A stretch of DNA of 39,967 nucleotides from NCBI GenBank assembly GCA_043821615.1, contig JBDRCS010000057.1, positions 1 through 39,967 on the forward strand, given 5' to 3'. The notes below the pieces were generated by a model. That model was given only the letters and a program-made list of their open reading frames with translations, searched no databases and was not told the DNA's origin. The stretch is from Patescibacteria group bacterium (GTDB lineage: Bacteria; Patescibacteriota; Patescibacteriia; UBA9570; JAHJKD01). Positions 9,019 to 39,739 of the stretch are shown piece after piece; position 1 is the stretch's first letter; each line of letters starts with the position of its first letter. Both the position numbers and the translations under genes were made by a program.

Positions 9019-11187
9019 TTAATTATTGAATTTTTTCGGGGCGCCTGCTTCCTGATTTAGTAATGCTTTCATTGATAATTCGATGCGGCCTCTCATTTTA
9101 TCAACTTTCATTACTTTGACCTTTACCTTATCTCCAACTTTCAAATAATCAGAGACCTTTTCCACTCTTTCATTGCTGATGTTTGAGATATGAACCATGC
9201 CGTCAATTTTCGGAGTAAGCTGGACAATGGCCCCAATTTCGGCACCGGTATTTTTATCGGCAATTATTTTAATAACTTCTGATTCATATATTTCACCGGG
9301 CTCAACTTCCTTTAAGGTGTCTTCGATCATTTTTAGGCCCGCCTTCATGGCATCGCTGTCTTCACTGGTGACATAAACTGTGCCGTCATCTTCAATGTCT
9401 ATGCCAACGCCAGTTTCATCAATGATGCCATTGATAACTTTTCCGCCGGCGCCGATTAGATCGCCGATCTTTTCAGGATCAATGTGAAGGGTTTCAACGC
9501 GAGGAGCATAAGGAGACATTTCCTTGCTTGGTCCGGGAATGGCCTGGGCCACAACTTCTAAAATTTCCAGACGAGCTTTTTTGGCTTGCTCAAAAGCTTG
9601 TCTGCATTGCTCCAGGGAAATACCAGTGACATTACTGATATCAAGCTGGACAGCAGTGACGCCATTCTTGGTGCCGGCTACTTTGTAATCCATGTCGCCG
9701 GCATGATCTTCTACGCCTTGGATGTCTGTGATAATTTTATATTTATTCTTGGAATCGGAAAGATCTGACATAAGTCCGATGGCGATGCCGGCTACCGGGG
9801 CCTTAATGGGAACACCAGCGTGCATCAGGGCCATTGATCCGCAAGTGGCCGAACCTTGAGAGGATGAACCGTTGGAAGACAAAACTTCAGAAACAACGCG
9901 GATAGTATAAGGGAAATCTTTTTTATCAGGGATGACCGGCTCCAGAGCTTTTTCAGCCAAGGCACCATGACCAATGTCTCTTCGACCGGGACCGCGAATT
10001 GGGGAAACTTCACCTACAGAAAAGCCGGGGAAGTTATAGTGATGTATAAATGATTTAGTACCATCTATTTCCATTTGATCCATAATTTGTTCGGCACCGG
10101 GAGGAGCTAATGTGACAATGGATAAAATTTGAGTTTCACCTCTTTGAAATAGACCGGTTCCATGCACTCTGGGAAGGATGCCAACTTGGGCTGACAAATC
10201 TCTGATCTCATCTATTTTTCGACCATCAACACGTTCTTCTTTTTCAATTAAACGTTTTCTGGCTTCATCTGAATAAGTATGGTCTAAATAGTCCAAGGCA
10301 TAGCCAAATTCCTCTGAAGTTAGCGCATTTTTAAGTTTGTCTTTAACATTGTTTTCAGCTGTATCTCGATCCATTTTTGACTTGAGTCCAAATAATGAAT
10401 CCATATTTTCAGCAACAATTGGTTCAGCTTTTTTAATGGCTTCTTCTTTTACTTTTTGGTCTTCTTCTGAAAGATCAAAAGAAGAGGTTTCCATTTTTTC
10501 TTTACCAATTTCTTTCTGGATTTTTTCCAAAAATTCAACAACTGGTTTTAAATTTCCTAAACCGAATTCAATAGCACCTAAAACTTTTTCTTCTTCGGCC
10601 TGATTGCCTTCAATTTCCATCATGACAACTTCTTCGTTGCGTCCGGCTAAAGTAAGATTAAATAATGATTCTTCCCTTTGTTCGATGGTTGGGTTTAATA
10701 CATATTTCTCATTGATATAACCAACGGTACAGCCAGCTAACGGGCCTTTCCAAGGAATGTCGGAAATCATCAGAGCACCAGCCGCACCAATGAGGGCGAT
10801 GATGTCCTGATTTGTTTCTTTATCATAGGCAAGAACATTTACAACCACTTGAACATCATTTCTCATTTCCTGATTAAAAAGAGGGCGAAGTGACCGGTCG
10901 ATTACTCTACCGGTTAGGATGGCTTCATCTGACGGACGACCATCTCTTTTCATGAAACGAGAGCCGGAAATTTTTCCAGCAGCATAAAGATTTTCAACAT
11001 AGTCAACCATAAGAGGGAAATAATCGATACCGTCTCTTGTGTCTGAAGACATAACGGCAGTGACTAAAACAACGGTTTCGCCATATTGCATTTTTACAGA
11101 TGCATTGGTCAGGCCGGCTAACTGGCCGGTTTCGAAAGTGAGGGTTTTTCCTCCCCATTCGAGCTCATACTTTTTTGGTTCGTTCAT
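9019..11187 (-). CDS. pnp: Polyribonucleotide nucleotidyltransferase (PNPase)
   Basis: 722 aa. Duplicated RNase PH domains, then a KH domain (GGKVINGIIDETG) and a C-terminal S1 domain (GEIYESEVIKI..GMVHISNIS). Confidence 0.95.
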   Translation of the reverse strand: MNEPKKYELEWGGKTLTFETGQLAGLTNASVKMQYGETVVLVTAVMSSDTRDGIDYFPLMVDYVENLYAAGKISGSRFMKRDGRPSDEAILTGRVIDRSLRPLFNQEMRNDVQVVVNVLAYDKETNQDIIALIGAAGALMISDIPWKGPLAGCTVGYINEKYVLNPTIEQREESLFNLTLAGRNEEVVMMEIEGNQAEEEKVLGAIEFGLGNLKPVVEFLEKIQKEIGKEKMETSSFDLSEEDQKVKEEAIKKAEPIVAENMDSLFGLKSKMDRDTAENNVKDKLKNALTSEEFGYALDYLDHTYSDEARKRLIEKEERVDGRKIDEIRDLSAQVGILPRVHGTGLFQRGETQILSIVTLAPPGAEQIMDQMEIDGTKSFIHHYNFPGFSVGEVSPIRGPGRRDIGHGALAEKALEPVIPDKKDFPYTIRVVSEVLSSNGSSSQGSATCGSMALMHAGVPIKAPVAGIAIGLMSDLSDSKNKYKIITDIQGVEDHAGDMDYKVAGTKNGVTAVQLDISNVTGISLEQCRQAFEQAKKARLEILEVVAQAIPGPSKEMSPYAPRVETLHIDPEKIGDLIGAGGKVINGIIDETGVGIDIEDDGTVYVTSEDSDAMKAGLKMIEDTLKEVEPGEIYESEVIKIIADKNTGAEIGAIVQLTPKIDGMVHISNISNERVEKVSDYLKVGDKVKVKVMKVDKMRGRIELSMKALLNQEAGAPKKFNN

Positions 11188-12665: not shown

Positions 12666-12672
12666 TCTCTTT

Positions 12673-12715
12673 CCTCTCCCCCTGCCCCCCTCTCCCCTCC
12701 GGGAGAGGGGGAAAC
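12673..12715 (+). repeat. GC-rich hairpin repeat, copy 1 (REP-like)
   Basis: CCTCTCCCCCTGCCCCCCTCTCCCCTCCGGGAGAGGGGGAAAC. 38/43 identical to 37005-37047. Stem CCCCCTCTCCC/GGGAGAGGGGG. Confidence 0.8.
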
Positions 12716-17655: not shown

Positions 17656-18849
17656 ATGCCAGAACAGGAAAAAAAGAATCCGTTAGTAGAATTACCGGAA
17701 GAGACCGGAAATTTCTTAAAATTCTTAAAAAGAAATTTAGATTCACCACGTCGTCCCGAAGAAGAAAATTTAACACCCGAAGTTATAGGGGCTAAAAGAT
17801 TATTAGAATCTATGAGTTCTTTTGGCATGTTAAAAGAAGGGGGAATAGACAGAGAAAGATACGCTGAATTAGTTGGGCAAATTACTGAATTAGAGAAATC
17901 ATTACCAGGAGATTCTCCCAGCTTAGCCGTAAAAGAAATGGGCGTGGCTATGCGCGGTGGAGATGCTGAAAAATATGCTGTCTTGCAAGATGAGCTGGAT
18001 GCAATCGATCAAGTGTTGGAAGAAAAATTAGGCTTAACACCAAAAGAAACTCATGCAATGGTGGGACGTGAAGATTTTCAAGAACATGCTACTAATTTAG
18101 AAGGCGATAGAAGCAGGGCTATGAAAGAAAGGCTATTAAAAATTGAAGATCGGTTCGAACCACAAAGAAAAGGCTGGATAAAAAGAGAAGTTTTTGAAGC
18201 AGATTCAGGTTTCCCAGAACACATAGATAAAATGTTGGAGAGATTAAAAGAAGGCGTGCCTAACCGAGAAGAAATTAGACCTTTGCCAGAAAAAGGAACT
18301 TTTGAATACATGGAAGATAGCAACCCAAAAAATCCTGAGGCACCGGTGGTTTGCTATGAAAGACAAATGGTAAAAACAGATAGAGATATTGTGAGCCCAG
18401 ATTTTTCATCTTGTGCTGGAGTTGTCCTTTATAAATTAGACGATGCCGGTAAACCAACTCAGGAAACTTTATTTACTCATCTACCGCCAATGACCTTTGG
18501 TGATGGAAAGCCCTCAAATTTTGATTCTTATACGCCTGATTTTTTCAAGGAACAATTTGGGGTTGATAATTTAGATGGCTATGAAGCTAAGGTTTTTACG
18601 GGTTTGAATATTCCTCCAGATAAAATTACAGATACTATTTCCCAGATGGGAGGTAATGTAAAAACAGTTGAGCAATTACCCCGTGATATGTATACAGGAT
18701 TGATTGATGCCAAAACAAAATCTATTGCTCTAATGGGAAATCCGGAATCGCCTATCAAATTAGGTGATATGGAATTATCCTATAGAACTCAGGAAGGAAA
18801 AGTACCAATTTATTCTACAGAAAAGCAAGTACCGGCTTTTATAGAATAA
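17656..18849 (+). CDS. Hypothetical 397-aa protein wedged into the tRNA cluster
   Basis: The ATG lies 4 nt after tRNA-Arg. GAGG from the tRNA acceptor 3' strand sits 6 nt upstream. Host-like composition. The C-terminal half carries SSCAGVVLY...THLPP, a Cys/His pattern reminiscent of CheD-type deamidases (weak). Confidence 0.6.
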   Translation: MPEQEKKNPLVELPEETGNFLKFLKRNLDSPRRPEEENLTPEVIGAKRLLESMSSFGMLKEGGIDRERYAELVGQITELEKSLPGDSPSLAVKEMGVAMRGGDAEKYAVLQDELDAIDQVLEEKLGLTPKETHAMVGREDFQEHATNLEGDRSRAMKERLLKIEDRFEPQRKGWIKREVFEADSGFPEHIDKMLERLKEGVPNREEIRPLPEKGTFEYMEDSNPKNPEAPVVCYERQMVKTDRDIVSPDFSSCAGVVLYKLDDAGKPTQETLFTHLPPMTFGDGKPSNFDSYTPDFFKEQFGVDNLDGYEAKVFTGLNIPPDKITDTISQMGGNVKTVEQLPRDMYTGLIDAKTKSIALMGNPESPIKLGDMELSYRTQEGKVPIYSTEKQVPAFIE

Positions 18850-19226: not shown

Positions 19227-19655
19227 ATGATTACAATAAGCCATGCTAAATTAAAAGATATTAAGGCTTGTATTAAAATTGATAAAAGCCTTAAAGAGAA
19301 AATTAATCGCCAGTTTCTTAAAGAAGCAATATTATCTAACAGAGTATTTATTGCCAAAGAAAAAAATGAAATAGCAGGATACTTAATATTTAATATTTTA
19401 TGGGGAGAGATTCCTTTTATTGAATTTATTAAAATTACTCCAGCTTATCAACGACAACTGATAGGAACTAACTTGATAAAAAAAATTGAAAATAAATTTA
19501 AAAAATTAGGTTTTAAATTTCTCTATAGTTCAACTTCGAGAAAAAATAAAAAATCAATAACTTTTCATAAAGCAACTGGTTTTAAAAAATGTGGCGATGT
19601 AGAATTAGATAAAGAAAAGGAAATATTTTTCAAGAAAAAAATAAATAAACAATGA
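19227..19655 (+). CDS. GNAT family N-acetyltransferase
   Basis: 142 aa. Motif-A-like YQRQLIGTNLIKKIENKFKKLGF. Overlaps the next gene by 4 nt (ATGA). Confidence 0.7.
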   Translation: MITISHAKLKDIKACIKIDKSLKEKINRQFLKEAILSNRVFIAKEKNEIAGYLIFNILWGEIPFIEFIKITPAYQRQLIGTNLIKKIENKFKKLGFKFLYSSTSRKNKKSITFHKATGFKKCGDVELDKEKEIFFKKKINKQ

Positions 19656-20532: not shown

Positions 20533-20777
20533 TTAAGATTTATTTAAAACTGACAAATAAGGACAATTTGTCTGAAAATTATTTTGAACAAATACCAATT
20601 CTTGCCTAACCTCTTCCCAATTGATAGTTCTGAACACATCCACTATGCGACCCAATTAAAAGATCCCCTTTGTGGGAATTTTTTAATTGCCAAATGAAGA
20701 AGCCCACCGAGATTGCAGTCGACGAGACTTCTTCGGTGGGCTTGTGGGCCTGCTCGGATGAGCATGGCGTCCTCCTT

Positions 20778-21233
20778 TCAGTTGTGGTTCTGTGGCCAGA
20801 CTTGCTGGTGGAAGCTTATTCCCAGTCCGATGACAGCCAGCACGCAACCAGCGACCGTCATGCCAGTGACGATAGGCCAGCCTTGATCGCCGTGCCAGAA
20901 CACCTGAGCTGTGTCTGTCTGAGTTGCCCAGATGATGATCATGGCCATGTAGACACCAACGCCTGAAAGCAGAGCCTTGGTCTTGCGGGGCCACCAGCAG
21001 CGAGAGAAGACCAAACGTTCCTGGTCGCTACTTCGCTTGCTGGCAAAAACAGCGTCCATCCACATGGCTGCACCGATCAGGACCATGGCCAGGCAGCACA
21101 GGGCGGAACAGTTGTCCTGGTCATGAACGATGAGGCCGTTTGCCAGGAAGACAGAGAAGATGAAGAACAGAATACCGATGGACCAGTAAGGCAGAGCTGC
21201 CCACTGGGCTTCGATACTACGCTGTTGTTTCAC
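20778..21233 (-). CDS. GC-rich-island membrane protein (about 151 aa, four hydrophobic segments)
   Basis: GC-rich third codon positions. GGAG lies 6 nt upstream of GTG 21233 (the track start TTG 21245 overlaps this SD). Four TM-like runs. No family recognised. Confidence 0.6.
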   Translation of the reverse strand: MKQQRSIEAQWAALPYWSIGILFFIFSVFLANGLIVHDQDNCSALCCLAMVLIGAAMWMDAVFASKRSSDQERLVFSRCWWPRKTKALLSGVGVYMAMIIIWATQTDTAQVFWHGDQGWPIVTGMTVAGCVLAVIGLGISFHQQVWPQNHN

Positions 21234-21340
21234 GATGTACTCCAATTGTTGAAACGGGTTAATTTTTGAACCACGGCATTTTATATTATATTAATAAGGT
21301 AAAAAGTCAAGTATGGAAGGGTCCCCTTAGTGGGTATTTT

Positions 21341-26288: not shown

Positions 26289-28352
26289 TTATTGAACTTC
26301 TAAATAATCTGTACTTCTAATTTCTTTCATAGCTCCGTTTTGGACTTCGCCTTCTACAAGATCGTAACCCATAAGGGCAAAGATTCTGTCCAGGTAGAAA
26401 ATTGGTCGGGAATTGCCATACCAGTCTTCACAGGAATATTCACAATTATCATATTCATCGATGTCAAGATCAAGATCTCTCTCTTCTTCAGGAGGGGCAT
26501 CAAGAGAGCCCAGGTCTTTGAAGGAATTAGAATTTGTGTTTACTTCCAAAAACTTTACACCATTAGATTCTTCCCATAATTGTGAAACGCCCTCTCCGCT
26601 AGAGCGGGTAGGCAAGCCAAGCACGCCTTCAGCCGCAGAATAGAAGAAGCCATGGCTTCTGGTTTCCCCTTCTACAGCGTCAGCCATGGTATAGGTGTTG
26701 TCTTTGGTGGGATTATCGGAAAGAGCTACCCAATTAAATAATAAATCATTGCCTTTGCCTCCAATAACTACAGCGTTGTTGTTATCTAAAACTTCAATGC
26801 GATCTACAGTAGATCCAAGCTCTACTTCTTGAACTTTTTTATCTTTTTGAGTGTAGTTCATTACATAAACAGAATCGCCAGCATAGTTATCTTCCCACCA
26901 GAGATCACCAGAACCATAAAGAAGGTAATCACCTACATAACGATTTACTAAAGTGTAGCCATCAGGGACAGGCAGAACAAAATAATCATTTGTGTCTACT
27001 TTGCCAATTGAGGCCGTAAAATCTTCAAGGGGAATTTGAACAAAAGAAAGGTCAGAATCTGAATATTCGGCATTCCACATGGCATCGCCAAACCCTTCAT
27101 CCCGAACCATGACATTTAAATTATCCTCGGTTTCCTTAAAGGAGAATTGATCGATAGGGGCACCATAGGCCTGAACTGCCGTCACCTCACTAAGGTCAAG
27201 TGGCATGGCATAGATATGCGCATTGGGCTCACCTTTATTGGCATCATAATCATAGTAAAAATAATCATTGTCAGAAACCCAGACATAGACGGTTTCGGAA
27301 GAGACATAGAAATTTCTGGCATAGGGTCCCAATACAGCCTGGGCATTGCAATCGAAATCGTTTGAAGCTAAATCACAGCTAACAACAGTATGCAAAGTTG
27401 GATTCTCCACTTCTTGAATTGGCTTATAAATATCTTCCGGGCTGAGAATTTGTTTGCCCGGACCAACTTCACTGCCTGAAATCCATTTTTTAATTTCCGG
27501 CAGATGGGCATCGTATTCACCTGTATCGTAATCCCAGGTATTTAAATATAAGGGCATGTAAAAAATTAACTTTCCGTCAACAAGGCGGGAAGCGTAGTTG
27601 CGAGAAGAGTAATAATCATTTGAATCCATGAAGTAAGTGTTTTCATGAGTGATGGTGCCTTGGTCGTCAATTTTAAATAATCCAATTTCTGTGGCTTCCA
27701 TAGAATAGGAATAACCAATCACAATGATGTTGTCGTCGGAGATAAGCATTTCATCATAATAGGTGCCAAGAGTGGAGCCGGCAGGGTAAGCTTCTGACTT
27801 GAAAACAGGTTTTAATAAATCTTCGCCATTTTCTTTTAATTTAACCGTAAATAATCTTCCTCTTCTTAATATTACCAAATAGTCACCATAGGATTTTACA
27901 ATATCACCTTCGTCTACGCCCTGTTCCTGGACATTGGTGATACTTTCATCTTCAGGGGCTGCTCCCAAGCCTTCTGGTGAGCCGGCCATAAGAGGTGCTT
28001 CTTCGACAGAATCCATGGTAACATCGCCTAAACCAATGTCATCAATAAAACTACTGCCTTTTTCTTCAAGAGCAGATACAGGTCTGGCGGCGCTTTCAAA
28101 ATCTTCAAATTCCTTGTCTGTGAATTTTTCCATTTTAGAGGCCGGTTCCCATTCTATGGCGCCGTCTGAAACCTGGGGCATGTCCTGATATTCCTGATAA
28201 TAGACGTAGCCAAAATAGGCGGTAATACCCAAAACGGCAAATAATAGGAAAACGAGGATAATAAAAACCGTTAATATTATTTTTCCGGTTGTTGTCATAA
28301 TTTTTTGTTTAATACTTAATAACCTGGGGTACAGTGCCCCCGGGTTATTCAT
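26289..28352 (-). CDS. Membrane-anchored beta-propeller domain protein (COG4880/PF09826-like)
   Basis: TM anchor IILTVFIILVFLLFAVLGITAYFGYVYY. TNVQEQGVDEGDIVKSYGDYLVIL motif. Long beta-rich body. The start may instead be ATG 28298 (MTTTGK). Confidence 0.7.
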   Translation of the reverse strand: MNNPGALYPRLLSIKQKIMTTTGKIILTVFIILVFLLFAVLGITAYFGYVYYQEYQDMPQVSDGAIEWEPASKMEKFTDKEFEDFESAARPVSALEEKGSSFIDDIGLGDVTMDSVEEAPLMAGSPEGLGAAPEDESITNVQEQGVDEGDIVKSYGDYLVILRRGRLFTVKLKENGEDLLKPVFKSEAYPAGSTLGTYYDEMLISDDNIIVIGYSYSMEATEIGLFKIDDQGTITHENTYFMDSNDYYSSRNYASRLVDGKLIFYMPLYLNTWDYDTGEYDAHLPEIKKWISGSEVGPGKQILSPEDIYKPIQEVENPTLHTVVSCDLASNDFDCNAQAVLGPYARNFYVSSETVYVWVSDNDYFYYDYDANKGEPNAHIYAMPLDLSEVTAVQAYGAPIDQFSFKETEDNLNVMVRDEGFGDAMWNAEYSDSDLSFVQIPLEDFTASIGKVDTNDYFVLPVPDGYTLVNRYVGDYLLYGSGDLWWEDNYAGDSVYVMNYTQKDKKVQEVELGSTVDRIEVLDNNNAVVIGGKGNDLLFNWVALSDNPTKDNTYTMADAVEGETRSHGFFYSAAEGVLGLPTRSSGEGVSQLWEESNGVKFLEVNTNSNSFKDLGSLDAPPEEERDLDLDIDEYDNCEYSCEDWYGNSRPIFYLDRIFALMGYDLVEGEVQNGAMKEIRSTDYLEVQ

Positions 28353-28504
28353 CTATATGATAGCGATAACCGCGGAGCACCGCATCCGCGGTTATCCCCG
28401 TAGTTTATTTAACTACTTAAAAAGTATACCATTTTTTACTCAATTAAAAAACCGGGGCTCACTCACGTGGGATGCGAATGAGGTACCCGGTCTTGACGCC
28501 TCCT

Positions 28505-29326
28505 TCAGGGCGTCGGGTTGGGGTTGAGAGGGTACATGATGGAGTGCAGTTCTTCCATCATGATCGTGAACTCGCTCTTGTCCTGGCCTGCCGAGCTCTC
28601 CAGGTAGACTCCATCCTGCACCAGATAGTTCATCTTCTGGAGTTGGAGGCGGAAGTTGCGGGCGTAGAGTCGAATCTCGCGGTGCTGGCCGGAATCGGCA
28701 CAAGCGGCGGCGAGCTCGACCTCGTGCTCCAGTTCGAGCAGGAGCAGGATGGCCGAGTCCACTGGCGAGCCAGAGCTGGGAAGCAGGTTCCAGCTCTCAT
28801 CCAGCGTCTCGAGTTTGTCCTTGCTCAGAACGGGAAGGGCCTTGTCCAGGGCTGTGCGGACGACTCTTGCAGAGACCTCGTCCAGGGTCTGGCGATCCTC
28901 CAAGAGCTGCTGGGGGGTCTGGCGCTCGCTGATGCGGAGCTCGACCTCGGTGTCGAGGTAGGCCATAGCCACGTAGTAGCCAGCGAAGTTGATGGTGAGG
29001 CTGGTGATCAGCAGGAGCCAGATCATGGGGTGGGCCAGACGCTGGCGCGGCTGTTGGCGCTTGGGCGGAGGAGGCTGCATGGCCGGACGAACCGGAGGGG
29101 GGACGGCCAGAGGCGGAGTCGGCTCTTCGTCCTCGTCAGGTAGAGCCTCGACCACGGCTTCCACGGGAGTCGAGTCTTCACCAGTGATGCCCCGATAGGT
29201 GTGGGACTCACCAGAGTAGCCCGAAGCCGGGAGCGGATTGATTTCGTCGTAGGTAGCCTCCAGCTCATCCGGCAGTTTGCCCAGATCGTGCGGGAGACTG
29301 CTGGGATCCCTTGTTTCATTAGTCAT
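28505..29326 (-). CDS. GC-rich-island protein, 273 aa, Pro-rich N-terminus + single TM + helical C-domain
   Basis: Start MTNETRD at ATG 29326 with GAGGAG 7 nt upstream. TM HPMIWLLLITSLTINFAGYYVAMAYL. Strongly G/C-ending codons. No family recognised. Confidence 0.6.
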   Translation of the reverse strand: MTNETRDPSSLPHDLGKLPDELEATYDEINPLPASGYSGESHTYRGITGEDSTPVEAVVEALPDEDEEPTPPLAVPPPVRPAMQPPPPKRQQPRQRLAHPMIWLLLITSLTINFAGYYVAMAYLDTEVELRISERQTPQQLLEDRQTLDEVSARVVRTALDKALPVLSKDKLETLDESWNLLPSSGSPVDSAILLLLELEHEVELAAACADSGQHREIRLYARNFRLQLQKMNYLVQDGVYLESSAGQDKSEFTIMMEELHSIMYPLNPNPTP

Positions 29327-29354
29327 GGGTTTTCTCCTCGATTCTGAGATCCGC

Positions 29355-29528
29355 TCACTCGCGGCTCCAGAAGGGGTAGCGGGTGAGAAGCCAGAAGACC
29401 ACGGCCACACCAGCGAGGGTGGGCCAGATTCCGAAGAAGTGATAGACAGCCACCGAAGCGAAGGCGGCGAGAATGCTGATGCCGACCCAGTTGCCGGCCA
29501 TCTGCCAATTAAATACGATTCTTTTCAT
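29355..29528 (-). CDS. GC-rich-island small membrane protein (57 aa, two hydrophobic helices)
   Basis: My translation is MKRIVFNWQMAGNWVGISILAAFASVAVYHFFGIWPTLAGVAVVFWLLTRYPFWSRE. GGAGG lies 6 nt upstream of the ATG. The stop is 28 nt before the next gene. Too short for the ORF track. Confidence 0.45.
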   Translation of the reverse strand: MKRIVFNWQMAGNWVGISILAAFASVAVYHFFGIWPTLAGVAVVFWLLTRYPFWSRE

Positions 29529-29629
29529 CCCCGGCCTCCGTTTAGGGGCTTTGTTGTTTAATGTGCAATCCCGTGAAACAAATCACAGGACCCTCCTTGA
29601 TTGCAGAATATTAATGAAAATGAGCGGTT

Positions 29630-29658
29630 TTGTCAATTGGCAGAATAAAGATTATAAT
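29630..29658 (+). promoter_or_regulatory. Promoter TTGTCA-17-TATAAT
   Basis: TTGTCA at 29630-29635, 17-nt spacer, TATAAT at 29653-29658. ATG 29666 lies 7 nt downstream (leaderless candidate). Confidence 0.55.
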
Positions 29659-29665
29659 GAACGCT

Positions 29666-30046
29666 ATGACTAATGAAGAGCATATTAAAACTTGTTTGGA
29701 AATCTTTGACCGGGTCTGCCAGGTATTAAACTGTAAAGGATTTGACATCTTACCGATGCAGAGGAAGGCCTTAAAAAATCCCAAGTCCTGCACTTTGGGA
29801 TATATTAATTTTGCCAAAAAGAAAATCGTGATTGATGTGTTTACGCCGGCACGAGGCCAGCCCAAGGCCTATCCCAGCATAATGAGCACCCTGGCCCATG
29901 AAGTGGCCCATATTCAAAAACCCCCATATCGTTCCAGATACAGAGGCCATATGATTAACCGCCAGCATTACCCGGCTTTTTATAGGCAGGTTACAAGGAA
30001 TATTAAAAAGTTGAAGAAAGATAAGGAGCTTTCTAAATTTTTTTAA
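29666..30046 (+). CDS. HExxH zinc-metallopeptidase-like protein (SprT/DUF45-like)
   Basis: STLAHEVAHIQKPPY contains HEVAH. Small basic protein. Start ambiguous between 29657 and 29666; the track start at 29630 lies inside the promoter. Confidence 0.55.
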   Translation: MTNEEHIKTCLEIFDRVCQVLNCKGFDILPMQRKALKNPKSCTLGYINFAKKKIVIDVFTPARGQPKAYPSIMSTLAHEVAHIQKPPYRSRYRGHMINRQHYPAFYRQVTRNIKKLKKDKELSKFF

Positions 30047-37002: not shown

Positions 37003-37004
37003 AT

Positions 37005-37047
37005 CCTCACCCCCTGTCCCCCTCTCCACTTCTGGAGAGGGGGAAAC
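37005..37047 (+). repeat. GC-rich hairpin repeat, copy 2 (REP-like)
   Basis: CCTCACCCCCTGTCCCCCTCTCCACTTCTGGAGAGGGGGAAAC. Stem CCCCCTCTCCA/TGGAGAGGGGG; relative to copy 1, the closing C:G pair has changed to A:T on both arms. Confidence 0.8.
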
Positions 37048-37058
37048 AAGAGTTATAT

Positions 37059-38039
37059 TTATCTATTATTTATTATTTTTATGTAAAAGCCTGCTCTCTT
37101 TTTATCATAATAAGACTGGTTTTGTCTATGAAACTCGGGATCTAGCACGGAAAGCCGAATTAATTTCCCAGCTTTCAGAACATAAGGATTAATGACTCTG
37201 ATTTTAGCTTTGATAAAAAAATCGTAATCATCCGGATTCTCTTTTATTTTTAAATCTTTCACTTGATTAAGACGATAGACAATAGAATCATTTTTAGACT
37301 CAACTAATTTATTATAAACTATTTCGTCGGTTGAAAAAAGGTCTTTAAAATCAATCACTTTCTCTATCAATCCGATTTTAATAGCCTCGGCAAAGATGTG
37401 GTAAAGCGCAGCCTGGTAAGGGTTGCCCCAGAGGCGGTCAGAAGCGTCCCGGAATTTTTCCGCAAATTTTTTGGCAATTGCCTGATGCTCAAAAGCAATG
37501 TCTTGTTCAAAGCGGGCCATGTCCTGAAAATATTCCTCCACCTCGGCTACTTTTAGAGCTTTGTCAGTCACCATGTCCCGGAAAAAATAATCTATTCTGT
37601 CCGCACATAAATCCGGCAAGTCGCGATCTAATAATTTATATTTGGAATGATTAAAAATGTCCTGCGAATTTATTTGATGGTTTTTTAAGATGGCCGGTAT
37701 CTCTGAATTGTTAATAATGGTTTCGTGAAATTCCTCGTGAAAAGGCACGCCACTTTCTCCGCCAAAGACAAAATCGATAACATGGGAAAAGGCCGTGTGC
37801 GGGACATCATGCAACAAGCCGGCGACTTGTTCTTCTAAAGTGGCATTGAGGTGGTTAAGAATATAGTAGACGCCCACCGAGTGCTCAAACCTGGTGGTAT
37901 CAAGGTGAGAGAAACGATAATAGCTGGCACCGTATTGATTCACCTCTTTTATCCTCTGCATGGGCGCGGATTCTAAAAGCTCCAGGATAACCGGTTCTGT
38001 GATTTTAAATTCGCCGTATATTTTGTCTTGGTATTTCAT
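37059..38039 (-). CDS. HD-domain phosphohydrolase (COG1078 / SAMHD1-like architecture)
   Basis: DKIYGEFKITEPVILELLESAPMQRIKEVNQYG ... TRFEHSVGVYYI ... LLHDVPHTAFSH ... DRIDYFFRD. Confidence 0.75.
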   Translation of the reverse strand: MKYQDKIYGEFKITEPVILELLESAPMQRIKEVNQYGASYYRFSHLDTTRFEHSVGVYYILNHLNATLEEQVAGLLHDVPHTAFSHVIDFVFGGESGVPFHEEFHETIINNSEIPAILKNHQINSQDIFNHSKYKLLDRDLPDLCADRIDYFFRDMVTDKALKVAEVEEYFQDMARFEQDIAFEHQAIAKKFAEKFRDASDRLWGNPYQAALYHIFAEAIKIGLIEKVIDFKDLFSTDEIVYNKLVESKNDSIVYRLNQVKDLKIKENPDDYDFFIKAKIRVINPYVLKAGKLIRLSVLDPEFHRQNQSYYDKKRAGFYIKIINNR

Positions 38040-38688
38040 AGGGAGATATTATATACCGAATTGAGCTTGTCTTCAAGTGATGTTTTTTATAATTATTAAA
38101 CGTATAATTTAATTTTTGATCAAATTGCTCTTCATCATCCATAATTTCTTTCCATGATTCATGACGCCAAATGCGTTGTCTTAATTTAATTATATTTAAT
38201 GTCTCTTGGGTTATGGACCGCGGGCAACACGGAGGCTGCCCGCTAACTGGATTTGAGGTTAGCCCCGGGCCTCTGTGCCCGGGGCGGGAATTTATAAACA
38301 TATTTTCATTTATTCGCGACGAGCACAGAGGCTCGCCGCTAACGTTATCTATTGGAAATTTTTTACAAAAACAATTTTTACCACAAACATATTCATAATC
38401 CAAATTTTCAATATTGTTTATATAAAATAACAATTGATTGGTTGAATAACTTTTCAAATCATGTTCAAAATTTTCAATATCAATCCCTTTAACGAATTTT
38501 ACCATTAAATTAAAATGGCAAGGCATAATTGAATATGAATAAATTTTAAAATCATACTTGGAATAATAATAAAATAAATAATCCTCGATTAAACTACTTA
38601 AAATGTAACTTGAAAAAATTGGGATTTTTTTATATGTCGAAAAAATTAAGTAATAAATTCGATTATTTTTTAATAAATATTTACTCAT
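38005..38688 (-). CDS. Divergent IS200/COG1943-type HUH (Y1) transposase-like protein, probably inactive
   Basis: IYSYSIMPCHFNLMV aligns with the family's MPNH(I/F)HLL motif, so HUH reads H-F-N here. The C-terminal QRIWRHESWKEIMDDEEQFDQKLNYTFNNYKKH resembles WQR.yYEHiiRne..l..i..Yi.nNP but lacks the Tyr. Start taken at MSKYLL (ATG 38688), downstream of the tsaD stop. Confidence 0.4.
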   Translation of the reverse strand: MSKYLLKNNRIYYLIFSTYKKIPIFSSYILSSLIEDYLFYYYSKYDFKIYSYSIMPCHFNLMVKFVKGIDIENFEHDLKSYSTNQLLFYINNIENLDYEYVCGKNCFCKKFPIDNVSGEPLCSSRINENMFINSRPGHRGPGLTSNPVSGQPPCCPRSITQETLNIIKLRQRIWRHESWKEIMDDEEQFDQKLNYTFNNYKKHHLKTSSIRYIISPYEIPRQNIRRI

Positions 38689-38758
38689 AAAATTAAAAAC
38701 GACCCATTGGTTTGGATCGCCGAATTTAAATAAAGAATAACAAAAATTATTTACATTG

Positions 38759-39739
38759 TCAAACAAGTTCCCAATTGGGATCGGCTTGAATTTTAAATAA
38801 ATTGGTGGCTTTTTTCTTGTAGGCGCCGGCGGCCGCAACCATGGCCGCGTTATCGGTGGTGAATTCCAGGTCCGGAATCAGGGTATTTTCAAAAGTTTCC
38901 CTAAATCTAGTACGCAGCCTTTGATTGGCAGAGACGCCGCCGGCCAGCAAAAAAGTCCGGGCATTATAATATTTTGACGCTTCTTTAGTTTTTTTAATTA
39001 AAACATCCACTATTGCCTCTTCCAGAGAGGCGGCAATGTCGGGCTGGCTATAATCTTTGAAGTTTGGCTCTTCATAGAGAAAAGCGGTTTTGAGGCCGGA
39101 AAAGGAAAAATCGTAGTTGCCGGAATCCAGCATAGGACGCGGAAAATCAATGACCGGCTTGCCCCGATTGGCGAGCTTGGAAATTTCCGGTCCGCCGGGA
39201 TAAGGCAGGCCCATTACTTTGGCGCATTTATCGAAACACTCGCCGGCCGCATCATCCTGGGTGGTGCCGATCAGCTGATACTCTCCCTGGCGGGAAAGCA
39301 AAACAATTTCAGTGTGACCGCCAGAGACAATCAGGCACAAGGCCGGGTATAGCACTTTTTTATTGGAGAGAAAGTTGGCCCCAATATGAGCCTCCATATG
39401 GTTGACCTTAAATATTGGCTTTTTCCATAATAGAGAAAGAGCCTTGGCTGTTTCCGTGCCCACTATTAACGAGGTAATAAGACCGGGGCCGGAGGCAATG
39501 GCGATCCGGTCCAGGTCTTCCCATTTTGTCTGCGCATCCCAAAGGGAGCCATTGATTACAGGAATAATATTTTTCACATGTTCACGCGCAGCCACTTCCG
39601 GGACTACGCCACCGGTTTCACGGTGAATGGATATTTGCGAGGAAACAATGTTTGATAAAACTGAAAAACGACCCTTTTCATGTTCCACAACTGAGGCGGA
39701 AGTTTCGTCACAGCTTGTTTCTATGCCAAGTATTTTCAT
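38759..39739 (-). CDS. tsaD: tRNA N6-adenosine threonylcarbamoyltransferase TsaD
   Basis: MKILGIETSCDETSASVV, HMEAHI, GGVSAN. Start taken at ATG 39739; the track's 62-aa extension is AT-rich junk. Confidence 0.9.
   Translation of the reverse strand: MKILGIETSCDETSASVVEHEKGRFSVLSNIVSSQISIHRETGGVVPEVAAREHVKNIIPVINGSLWDAQTKWEDLDRIAIASGPGLITSLIVGTETAKALSLLWKKPIFKVNHMEAHIGANFLSNKKVLYPALCLIVSGGHTEIVLLSRQGEYQLIGTTQDDAAGECFDKCAKVMGLPYPGGPEISKLANRGKPVIDFPRPMLDSGNYDFSFSGLKTAFLYEEPNFKDYSQPDIAASLEEAIVDVLIKKTKEASKYYNARTFLLAGGVSANQRLRTRFRETFENTLIPDLEFTTDNAAMVAAAGAYKKKATNLFKIQADPNWELV

Follow-up and report, generated by a model that had tools for sequence, protein, structure and literature searches.

The window analysed here is a stretch of 39,967 nucleotides (nt) from a Patescibacteria group bacterium (contig JBDRCS010000057.1 of assembly GCA_043821615.1), always taken at its full length, in which a minus-strand unit of two genes around positions 28461-29590 forms an island rich in guanine plus cytosine (GC) within an AT-rich genome. 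Taking all comparisons together, we lean slightly towards explaining this island as an old bicistronic accessory cassette that is housed in a variable hotspot and encodes an orphan pair of membrane proteins with a swapped surface module. The kind of thing is known, an islet in a hotspot, and the protein family itself is new. The original prediction for this locus, made from the sequence alone, had recognised the two genes and their foreign composition and taken the pair for a very recent acquisition from a high-GC donor; its description of the genes largely stands, and its dating is not supported.

The compositional break is sharp at both ends. GC is 0.603 across 28461-29590 and 0.392 in the remaining window, with a step from 0.27 to 0.62 at ~28460 and a drop back at ~29590 in 60-nt bins. 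Hand counts given with the original prediction were exact (38/60 in 28741-28800, against 24/60 in 28201-28260 and 16/60 in 19261-19320), and the windowed analyses that it proposed agree with them: the top tetranucleotide outlier among 1.1-kb windows by L1 distance is 28326-29425 (z=10.9; next unrelated window, z=3.5), and GC at third codon positions (GC3) in both island genes (Table 1) lies z≈5-6 above the open reading frames (ORFs) of the carrier genome (mean 0.35, sd 0.085, maximum 0.49, n=29). G or C ends 211 of the 273 codons in the large gene, whose GC1/2/3 is 0.68/0.41/0.77, and 44 of 57 in the small one. The encoded proteins follow suit, with elevated GC1 and GC2, 2.6% lysine vs 8.6% in the carrier's genes and more arginine than lysine, and the codon usage of the island shows no correlation with that of the carrier (r≈0). 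Since coding DNA and proteins alike carry the signature of a high-GC gene pool, the ultimate origin of the cassette would be horizontal, and because the amino-acid composition is also of the high-GC type, the family has probably evolved for long in a GC-rich background. An extent of 28447-29560 had been proposed, which captured a real island and missed part of a slightly longer transcription unit, predicted to begin at a promoter (29636) and to end at a putative terminator near 28445.

The minus-strand reading of the island is protein-coding by allele comparison, because its variable regions align only as protein and in a frame-specific manner. Between the window and a sister-strain locus (L001), the last ~130 codons of the large gene give no blastn alignment, whereas their translations are colinear with 31% identity (E=2e-14); in a six-frame control on this region the sense frame scores 52 bits, its codon-complementary antisense shadow 31.6 bits and the other frames nothing. 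Codons 1-99 have a ratio of nonsynonymous to synonymous substitution rates (dN/dS) of 0.27, vs a ratio of the corresponding proportions of differing sites (pN/pS) of 0.91 in the frame of the rival plus-strand (antisense) ORF. Moreover, insertions and deletions between alleles of the large gene keep the reading frame, a frame of 273 codons stays open with a probability of 3e-4 at island composition, and the homologue in a more distant relative (L125) has its own Shine-Dalgarno site (SD) and ATG on the same strand. The 57-codon ORF is not significant by itself (probability of an open frame, 0.19); all five copies keep it intact, its SD is the best in the window, and a clean two-helix hairpin is predicted for its product. 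The coordinates, strand, SD sites and 28-nt spacer that had been predicted for the two genes were all reproduced, as were the shadow ORFs on both strands.

The surrounding genome uses other start signals, as had been suspected. An SD core of >=4 nt at 5-10 nt spacing precedes only 4 of 34 ORFs in the window, namely both island genes, the GC-rich ORF at 20778..21245, and 17656..18849 (GAGG, 6 nt). In 10 of 30 carrier ORFs a TATAAT-like hexamer ends 4-11 nt 5' of the start codon, the layout expected of leaderless mRNAs, and the segment looks largely leaderless. A related locus, L126, has the same leaderless-like, SD-less pattern.

Table 1. Features of the cassette, its predicted protein domains and the independent contigs that cover it (positions in the window)
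Feature	Position	Strand	Remarks
57-aa ORF	29355..29528	-	ATG; GC3 0.76; SD GGAGG
SD of the 57-aa gene, GGAGG	29535..29539	-	6 nt 5' of ATG
273-aa gene, entire coding sequence including stop	28505..29326	-	ATG; GC3 0.77
SD of the 273-aa gene, GAGGAG	29334..29339	-	7 nt 5' of ATG
Codons 1-99, cytoplasmic tail (acidic, Pro-rich), predicted disordered	29030..29326	-	Predicted local distance difference test score (pLDDT) <50
Codons 100-123, predicted transmembrane (TM) helix, weakly hydrophobic; outer half differs between alleles	28958..29029	-	Hydropathy; AlphaFold2 (AF2) models
Codons 124-141, conserved juxtamembrane LDTEVELRI(S/R)ERQTPQQL, last DNA-alignable stretch	28904..28957	-	Alignment to L001
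Codons 142-273, allele-variable helical bundle, predicted extracellular	28508..28903	-	Helices pLDDT ~70-85
Sigma-70-like promoter of the cassette, TTGACA-17-TAATAT, predicted	29608..29636	-	AT-rich, carrier-like DNA; 10/12 matches
10-bp hairpin in ~70-nt 5' leader	29567..29592	-	Minimum free energy fold
Putative terminator, ACCGGG ... CCCGGT + T-run; also 3' compositional boundary	28445..28491	-	Read from sequence
Divergent promoter of the leaderless HExxH gene, TTGTCA-17-TATAAT, predicted	29630..29658	+	11/12 matches
Contig L003, SRR26275509	28387-29679		99.9% identity
Contig L135, SRR26275510	28691-30791		99.8% identity
Contig L136, ERZ928008	28117-29898		99.8% identity
Contig L001, sister strain, ERZ928008	28335-29851		93.7% and 98.4% in alignable parts
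Contig L002, sister strain, SRR2544004	28368-29679		93.6% and 98.1% in alignable parts

Five contigs from other assemblies carry the island (Table 1). Its AT-rich junctions recur at 99.8-99.9% identity in L003, L135 and L136 and are also found in sister-strain L001, and an assembly chimera, which the original prediction wanted checked, is excluded because independent DNA metagenome assemblies reproduce these junctions. SRR26275509 and SRR26275510 are DNA data sets from Aspo boreholes sequenced by Illumina NovaSeq (PMC11484514, Table 1), and SRR2544004 was deposited as a metagenome of an Aspo biofilm study (PMC5364579). The 1.3-2.1-kb length of the contigs had raised the suspicion that they were small circular elements or transcripts of high abundance, which was rejected: there are no terminal overlaps, the same AT-rich flanks are present, and the sources are low-coverage DNA metagenomes. 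Nucleotides 1-22 of L003, a public Logan contig, are Illumina TruSeq adapter (CTACACGACGCTCTTCCGATCT), an assembly artefact. The habitat of the lineage is Fennoscandian deep groundwater, and the best matches to the PilB of the carrier genome are from Patescibacteria metagenome-assembled genomes (MAGs) at 76-77% identity, among which one derives from 'modern marine' rock biofilm at Aspo.

Neither protein had been recognised by the original prediction, and homology, domain and structure searches likewise led to the sister allele only. This was the sole result of a word-index search with both proteins over 5.8 billion clusters and of a profile HMMER scan that covered 1.84 billion representatives exhaustively (P0002), and ~15 billion proteins, those of the same groundwater samples included, contain no homologue beyond this locus. 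Both proteins lack a match in Pfam, PHROG, NCBIfam, PADLOC and a PDB profile search (best PDB E 0.77), in tblastn against 50,697 phage records and plasmids, and in IMG/VR and 185,579 GTDB species genomes. Weak SLATT-like and MCP-like rows among the Foldseek results were not used. By these searches, the protein family is new and at present unique to one groundwater lineage.

From sequence patterns we infer a promoter, an operon structure and a terminator, so that the cassette would be a self-contained unit made up of a sigma-70-type promoter, a hairpin leader of ~70 nt, two SD-led genes and a putative terminator (Table 1). A promoter scan returned 3 sites vs 0.7 expected in shuffles. Both hexamers of the predicted cassette promoter are kept in L001, where the spacer is rewritten, and TTGACA is kept in L125; this promoter stands back to back with that of the divergent neighbouring gene, which encodes an HExxH protein. 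The stem of the leader hairpin is also kept in L001, with a G-U pair turned into A-U; in L125 the corresponding position is taken by another hairpin. The putative terminator segment is 98% conserved in L001 and escaped a consensus scan because its loop is 29 nt. Beyond it, a beta-propeller gene is preceded by an extended -10 element and a perfect hairpin of 12 bp; this GC-rich hairpin (28365-28396, GATAACCGCGGA/TCCGCGGTTATC) is situated in the leader of that gene, just 3' of the extended -10, and is identical in L001. No Rfam family reaches its gathering score in the island, and a full-length match of the leader (29519-29596, minus) to the SAM-II riboswitch (SAM_alpha, RF00521), which scored 19.6 bits (gathering threshold 36; search space 1.4 kb, E=0.12), was taken as chance. 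As a separate observation, the 273-aa gene opens with 12 nt (ATGACTAATGAA, encoding MTNE; 29315-29326) that recur unchanged, as an inverted repeat, at the apparent leaderless start of the HExxH gene (29666-29677). The two copies are 340 nt apart, and the four codons stand out as AT-rich against the GC-rich remainder of the 273-aa gene; the repeat may have arisen by chance or may record how the 5' end of this gene was put together.

Comparison with relatives places the cassette in a hotspot. The HExxH gene is a conserved anchor, and the content upstream of it differs among relatives: the beta-propeller gene plus the cassette in the window type (L003, L135, L136) and the L001 type (L001, L002); a homologue of the large gene alone, with a shorter N-terminus and no 57-aa gene, in L125 (HExxH 91% identical in amino acids, 78% in nucleotides); an abutting SpoIIAA-like gene in L005, L129, L130 and L132 (HExxH 78-83%); a different GC-rich, SD-led 92-aa orphan in L126 and L127; and unrelated genes in L128, L133 and L134. 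In L005, the same 92-aa orphan and a GC-rich LOG-family gene (PF03641; LOG/SLOG) lie beyond the SpoIIAA-like gene. The cassette is absent from L005, which is the closest reference MAG, from L126-L134 and from 120 other loci of the candidate phyla radiation (CPR), and the presence/absence comparison suggested with the original prediction thus yields a patchy distribution. Because the gene for the 687-aa membrane-anchored beta-propeller protein (PF09826; 26289-28352), although carrier-like in GC, is also missing from L005 and other relatives, it appears to be part of the same variable region. The other neighbours of the island are the HExxH protein and a glycoside hydrolase that has a signal or anchor at its N-terminus. 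No direct or inverted repeats beyond chance, integrase, tRNA or insertion sequence (IS) mark the island borders; the nearest tRNAs are 9 kb away, an IS200-like gene 9 kb and a XerC/D-like gene 14 kb. An integron-like or repeat-bounded cassette was rejected, as there are no common boundary repeats. A metagenome scan with the HExxH protein found nothing, and one with a DHH alignment found distant relatives only (<=60-63% identity), which lack the locus. Elsewhere in the window, an AT-rich (GC 0.30) ORF for an IS200-like Y1 transposase (38005-38838) lies between an HD-domain gene and tsaD, where L126 has a GC-rich 152-aa orphan; this gap may be a second variable site.

Within this hotspot the cassette appears to be an older resident. 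The L125 fragment (MADKKSDYIEESHTHRGITGEGATPADAVEALPDENEE...) has a clear motif in common with residues 40-68 of the window protein, and synonymous substitutions per synonymous site (dS) between window and L125 number 1.06 in the island fragment, against 1.03 in the adjacent HExxH gene. Since the L125 homologue adjoins the same HExxH anchor and its dS equals that of the flank, the large gene was likely already present in the common ancestor of the window and L125 lineages, as far as a small sample tells. In addition, window-type and L001-type strains, whose flanks are 2-6% apart, both have the cassette. These two observations speak against the very recent acquisition put forward in the original prediction, which had itself named as refuting what is seen here, at least in the sub-clade: a GC-rich gene at the syntenic site of a diverged AT-rich relative. 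Jointly with the explanation given at the outset, and with the same slight preference, we consider that the cassette has resided in the variable hotspot for ~1 synonymous substitution per site in the sub-clade.

The two strain types differ in one part of the cassette far more than in the rest. Between the window and L001, dS is 0.09 in codons 1-141 of the large gene and 0.21 in the flanking HExxH gene, and it rises to 0.94, with a dN of 0.74, in the variable C-terminal domain of ~130 codons (pS 0.54, pN 0.47; GC3 0.80 in the window and 0.86 in L001). Just 3' of this domain the flank is back to 98% identity, and both allele types are present in one assembly, ERZ928008. Because synonymous sites are as diverged as nonsynonymous ones, these alleles speak for recombination or old polymorphism and not for local positive selection or a diversity-generating retroelement (DGR); the difference points either to the import of a long-diverged allele through homologous recombination or to a balanced polymorphism of long standing. 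A DGR was rejected on further grounds as well: there is no reverse transcriptase among the Pfam-scanned ORFs and no template repeat in the window, and about half of the sites differ, synonymous ones included, in a manner that is not adenine-specific. Outside the variable domain, the 13 amino-acid changes in residues 1-141 of the large protein include 8 at 108-121, within the outer TM half. The 57-aa protein has 6 amino-acid differences, of which 5 fall at residues 34-44, in the loop and second TM helix (TM2); its gene has 7 nonsynonymous vs 1 synonymous change between allele types (pN/pS >1). This pattern suggests that the two proteins touch in the outer leaflet and that the unit of exchange is the entire exposed face. 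At a finer scale, L135 and L136 differ from the window by two nonsynonymous changes at codons 44 and 46 (29189-29197), inside a conserved motif of the tail, giving ESHTYRGITGE vs ESHTHRSITGE, and L125 has ESHTHRGITGE.

The predicted architecture gives this pattern a possible meaning. One TM helix, a Pro-rich N-terminus and a C-terminal helical domain had been proposed for the large protein, a layout with which structure prediction agrees, with the qualification that the TM helix is weakly hydrophobic: its Kyte-Doolittle value is 1.91 in a 15-residue window (residues 101-115) and <1.6 with a 19-residue window, and AF2 predicts a helix at residues 100-131. Residues 1-99 have a net charge of -10, with a +4 basic patch just N-terminal to the TM helix and -2 after it, and this charge distribution predicts an N-in/C-out orientation. 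The tail contains a conserved motif, ESHT[YH]R[GS]ITGE...EALPDE[DN]EE, which is shared with L125, and the AF2 models of both alleles have the same helix pattern, with a bundle pLDDT of ~70-85. The two-helix membrane protein proposed for the small gene agrees with hydrophobic segments at ~14-31 and 31-48 and basic ends, from which a TM hairpin with N-in/C-in orientation is predicted.

In the explanation that we slightly favour, the hypervariable hotspot directly upstream of the HExxH gene would house the cassette, and contacts between their TM helices would join the 57-aa and 273-aa proteins in a membrane complex. The large protein would have its disordered tail inside, under purifying selection, followed by the TM helix, the juxtamembrane segment and a bundle of ~130 aa outside. 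This bundle, together with the outer TM half and TM2 of the 57-aa partner, would exist as at least two deeply diverged allele types exchanged by homologous recombination, and would serve as a surface for strain-specific recognition or evasion, turned towards phage, host cells or competitors. Its polymorphism would be kept by frequency-dependent selection, and the conserved tail may couple the bundle to a cytoplasmic partner.

Several points weigh against this explanation. GC3 is still 0.77-0.86 after a dS of ≈1 in a genome with a GC3 of 0.35, which is an uneasy fit to long residence; either selection or biased conversion, or re-import of alleles from an unsampled GC-rich pool, would account for it. 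The comparison with L125 covers 32 codons, and the two allele types are too few for a statistical test of co-variation. The 7:1 substitution ratio of the 57-aa gene fits co-variation and equally fits relaxed constraint. The structure models are built on 2-3 sequences, with a mean pLDDT of 54-57, and, with a TM helix of such low hydrophobicity, the predicted topology comes from the positive-inside rule alone. Foldseek against PDB and BFVD returned only non-significant generic four-helix bundles (best E=0.037), and the lack of a homologue, a domain or a significant structural match leaves the proposed function without support from these sources.

As to where the cassette came from, the analysis names no donor; three observations, on related loci, on another cassette and from published work, make a GC-richer Patescibacteria relative no less plausible than the host of an episymbiont. 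The 'high-GC host' of the original prediction has no evidence behind it, because no homologue exists beyond the locus in ~15 billion proteins, GTDB, IMG/VR, phages and plasmids. Related loci in the wider clade have a GC of up to 0.60-0.67, with L126 at 0.50. A 92-aa cassette (L005 659-937, L126 1376-1654) has a dS of 0.68 where the flanking HExxH, glycoside hydrolase and DHH genes are saturated (pS 0.74-0.88), and it therefore moved between CPR lineages after their split. Transfers into groundwater Patescibacteria come mostly from other Patescibacteria and are mostly not recent, with 3.9-34.5% divergence (PMC12455944). All GC-rich cassettes share a preference for C-ending codons, which is not diagnostic of the donor.

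A broader reading, which we regard as rather unlikely, makes the GC-rich, SD-led orphan cassettes a distinct maintained class of genes in a leaderless, SD-less, AT-rich clade, that is, a system of exchangeable surface or accessory modules. This pair, the 155-aa protein of 20778..21245, the 92-aa and 152-aa orphans and the LOG gene of relatives would be examples. GC-richness would then not be a fading trace of transfer; it would be actively kept, for ~1 substitution per synonymous site, by selection on mRNA or translation mode, or by continual recombinational re-import from a GC-rich pool within the phylum, and the class would have its own initiation regime and be shuffled among lineages at fixed hotspots.

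The remaining rivals concern what the proteins do and how recently they came, and the signalling, conflict-module and fresh-transfer readings have no positive evidence past general architecture. A transmembrane signalling device of the anti-sigma or ToxR/ToxS-like kind, with the bundle as sensor, the tail binding a regulator and the small protein as stabiliser, is unlikely. It would suit the predicted N-in/TM/C-out order, the adjoining small membrane protein and a tail whose dN/dS is low and whose motif is conserved out to L125. Foldseek also gives a weak likeness to four-helix-bundle ligand-binding sensors, but the PcaY_PP domains that represent the 4HB_MCP type score E=0.2-1.4 and a TM-score of <=0.33, which is not significant. 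Moreover, Pfam and NCBIfam contain no anti-sigma, zf-HC2, winged helix-turn-helix (wHTH) or other signalling domain matching these proteins, no sigma or regulator gene is adjacent, the tail is predicted to be disordered, and sensors are rarely replaced wholesale between co-occurring strains.

Similarly unlikely is a phage-derived 'moron' or conflict module, whether for superinfection exclusion or abortive infection or as a holin-like or toxin-immunity pair. The autonomous promoter-genes-terminator unit, deviant composition, small membrane proteins and a hotspot with alternative cargo, including the LOG/SLOG-family gene in L005, would all be in keeping with it, and allele diversity is typical of conflict genes. 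Against it, neither PHROG, PADLOC and Pfam nor tblastn against the phage records, IMG/VR and plasmids gave a match, the fold search in BFVD gave nothing significant, and no phage gene, endolysin or integrase flanks the cassette. The predicted two-TM N-in/C-in layout of the small protein fits a class II holin or pinholin, but no endolysin or spanin is adjacent and no holin family of Pfam or PHROG matches; an M23/LysM peptidase is encoded 25 kb from the island. For a polymorphic toxin, the DNA past the stop codon was inspected and consists of conserved non-coding sequence and the putative terminator, with no cognate variable gene after the variable domain; the 57-aa protein alone co-varies, and only in TM2.

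A very recent transfer of both genes straight from the high-GC host of an episymbiont is improbable. Such a transfer would explain the extreme and unameliorated GC3 of 0.76-0.86, an amino-acid composition of the high-GC type, SD-led genes in a genome poor in SDs and the absence of the cassette from L005 and other relatives. However, the cassette is present in two strain types and its L125 homologue occupies the same anchor at a dS (≈1) matching the flank; the host donor is further disfavoured because a donor from the same habitat should have been sampled, yet no homologue occurs in the ~15 billion proteins, which include the same groundwater samples, or in the 185,579 species genomes. Finally, an island that is not protein-coding, be it a chimeric assembly or a GC-rich insert with chance ORFs that is non-coding or a structured RNA, is very improbable: long chance ORFs in GC-rich DNA, the open-frame probability and pN/pS of the 57-aa gene and the sub-threshold SAM-II-like match would allow it, but junctions in independent assemblies, frame-specific protein conservation, the improbability of 273 open codons, frame-keeping indels and the lack of an Rfam family at gathering score all argue otherwise.

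Other GC-rich segments and repeats were seen in the window and in related loci. The window has a second GC-rich mini-cassette of the same design at 20643-21310 (minus), with a TTGACT-17-TATAAT-like promoter and a GGAG SD; its ORF, 20778..21245, encodes a multi-TM orphan of about 150-155 aa (GC 0.556, GC3 0.68-0.69), and its stop is followed by AAGGAGG and a hairpin. This protein has no match in Pfam, PHROG, NCBIfam or PADLOC and no tblastn match in the fetched CPR loci. Among relatives, GC-rich SD-led genes stand among SD-less ones at L005 601-1966 and at L126 1376-1654 and 10225-10683; in L126, GC3 is 0.87 in the 92-aa orphan and 0.84 in the 152-aa orphan (10225-10683). In 1.68 Mb of related CPR loci, sharply GC-rich segments of 600 bp turn up at about one per 70 kb, and some may be RNA genes. 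A 44-nt GC-rich palindrome, TCCTC.CCCCTG.CCCCCTCTCC...GGAGAGGGGGAAAC, is found at gene ends at 12672-12715 and 37004-37047 in copies that are 89% identical, and may be a terminator element of the repetitive extragenic palindromic (REP) kind.

Patescibacteria depend on cell contact, and very few of their surface determinants are known. The locus offers a compact candidate, in which a swapped exposed domain is joined to a conserved tail, the pattern expected at an interface with hosts, phages or competitors. The cassette is also a natural test case for how genes of foreign composition persist in reduced, leaderless genomes, since it seems to have retained a GC3 near 0.8 over ~1 synonymous substitution per site, which simple amelioration models do not predict. 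Should neither point hold, it would still be a well-documented small islet of horizontal derivation in a hotspot, a phenomenon known in groundwater Patescibacteria.

Like the target genes of DGRs, which are common in CPR, the cassette has a hypervariable C-terminus on a surface-type CPR protein; unlike them, it lacks a reverse transcriptase and a template repeat and is changed at synonymous sites too. Phage morons likewise have their own promoter and terminator, deviant GC and often small membrane proteins, whereas the cassette is not within a prophage and has neither phage genes nor phage homologues. With ToxR/ToxS and anti-sigma factors of the RsgI/RskA type it would share the predicted N-in/single-TM/C-out order, a Pro-rich membrane-proximal segment, a variable outer domain and a small membrane partner, in contrast to which it has no detectable DNA-binding or anti-sigma domain, no nearby regulator and a tail predicted to be disordered. 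The sharp switch from a conserved N-terminal to a diverged C-terminal part, the conserved flank beyond and the coexisting alleles recall CdiA-CT/Rhs-CT and the variable regions of kin-recognition proteins; CdiA-CT and Rhs-CT differ in having a secretion or delivery domain and a downstream immunity gene, and the variable domain here is a small bundle on its own TM helix. Genomic islets, islands and singly transferred genes of groundwater Patescibacteria (PMC12455944) are the remaining comparison. The cassette is very small beside them (1.1 kb, two genes), is without integrase, tRNA, repeats or IS at its borders and without an identifiable donor, and has an allelic domain swapped by recombination; what it has in common with them is that it is accessory DNA of deviant composition, scattered patchily over related genomes, in a phylum where transfers are mostly internal and mostly not recent.

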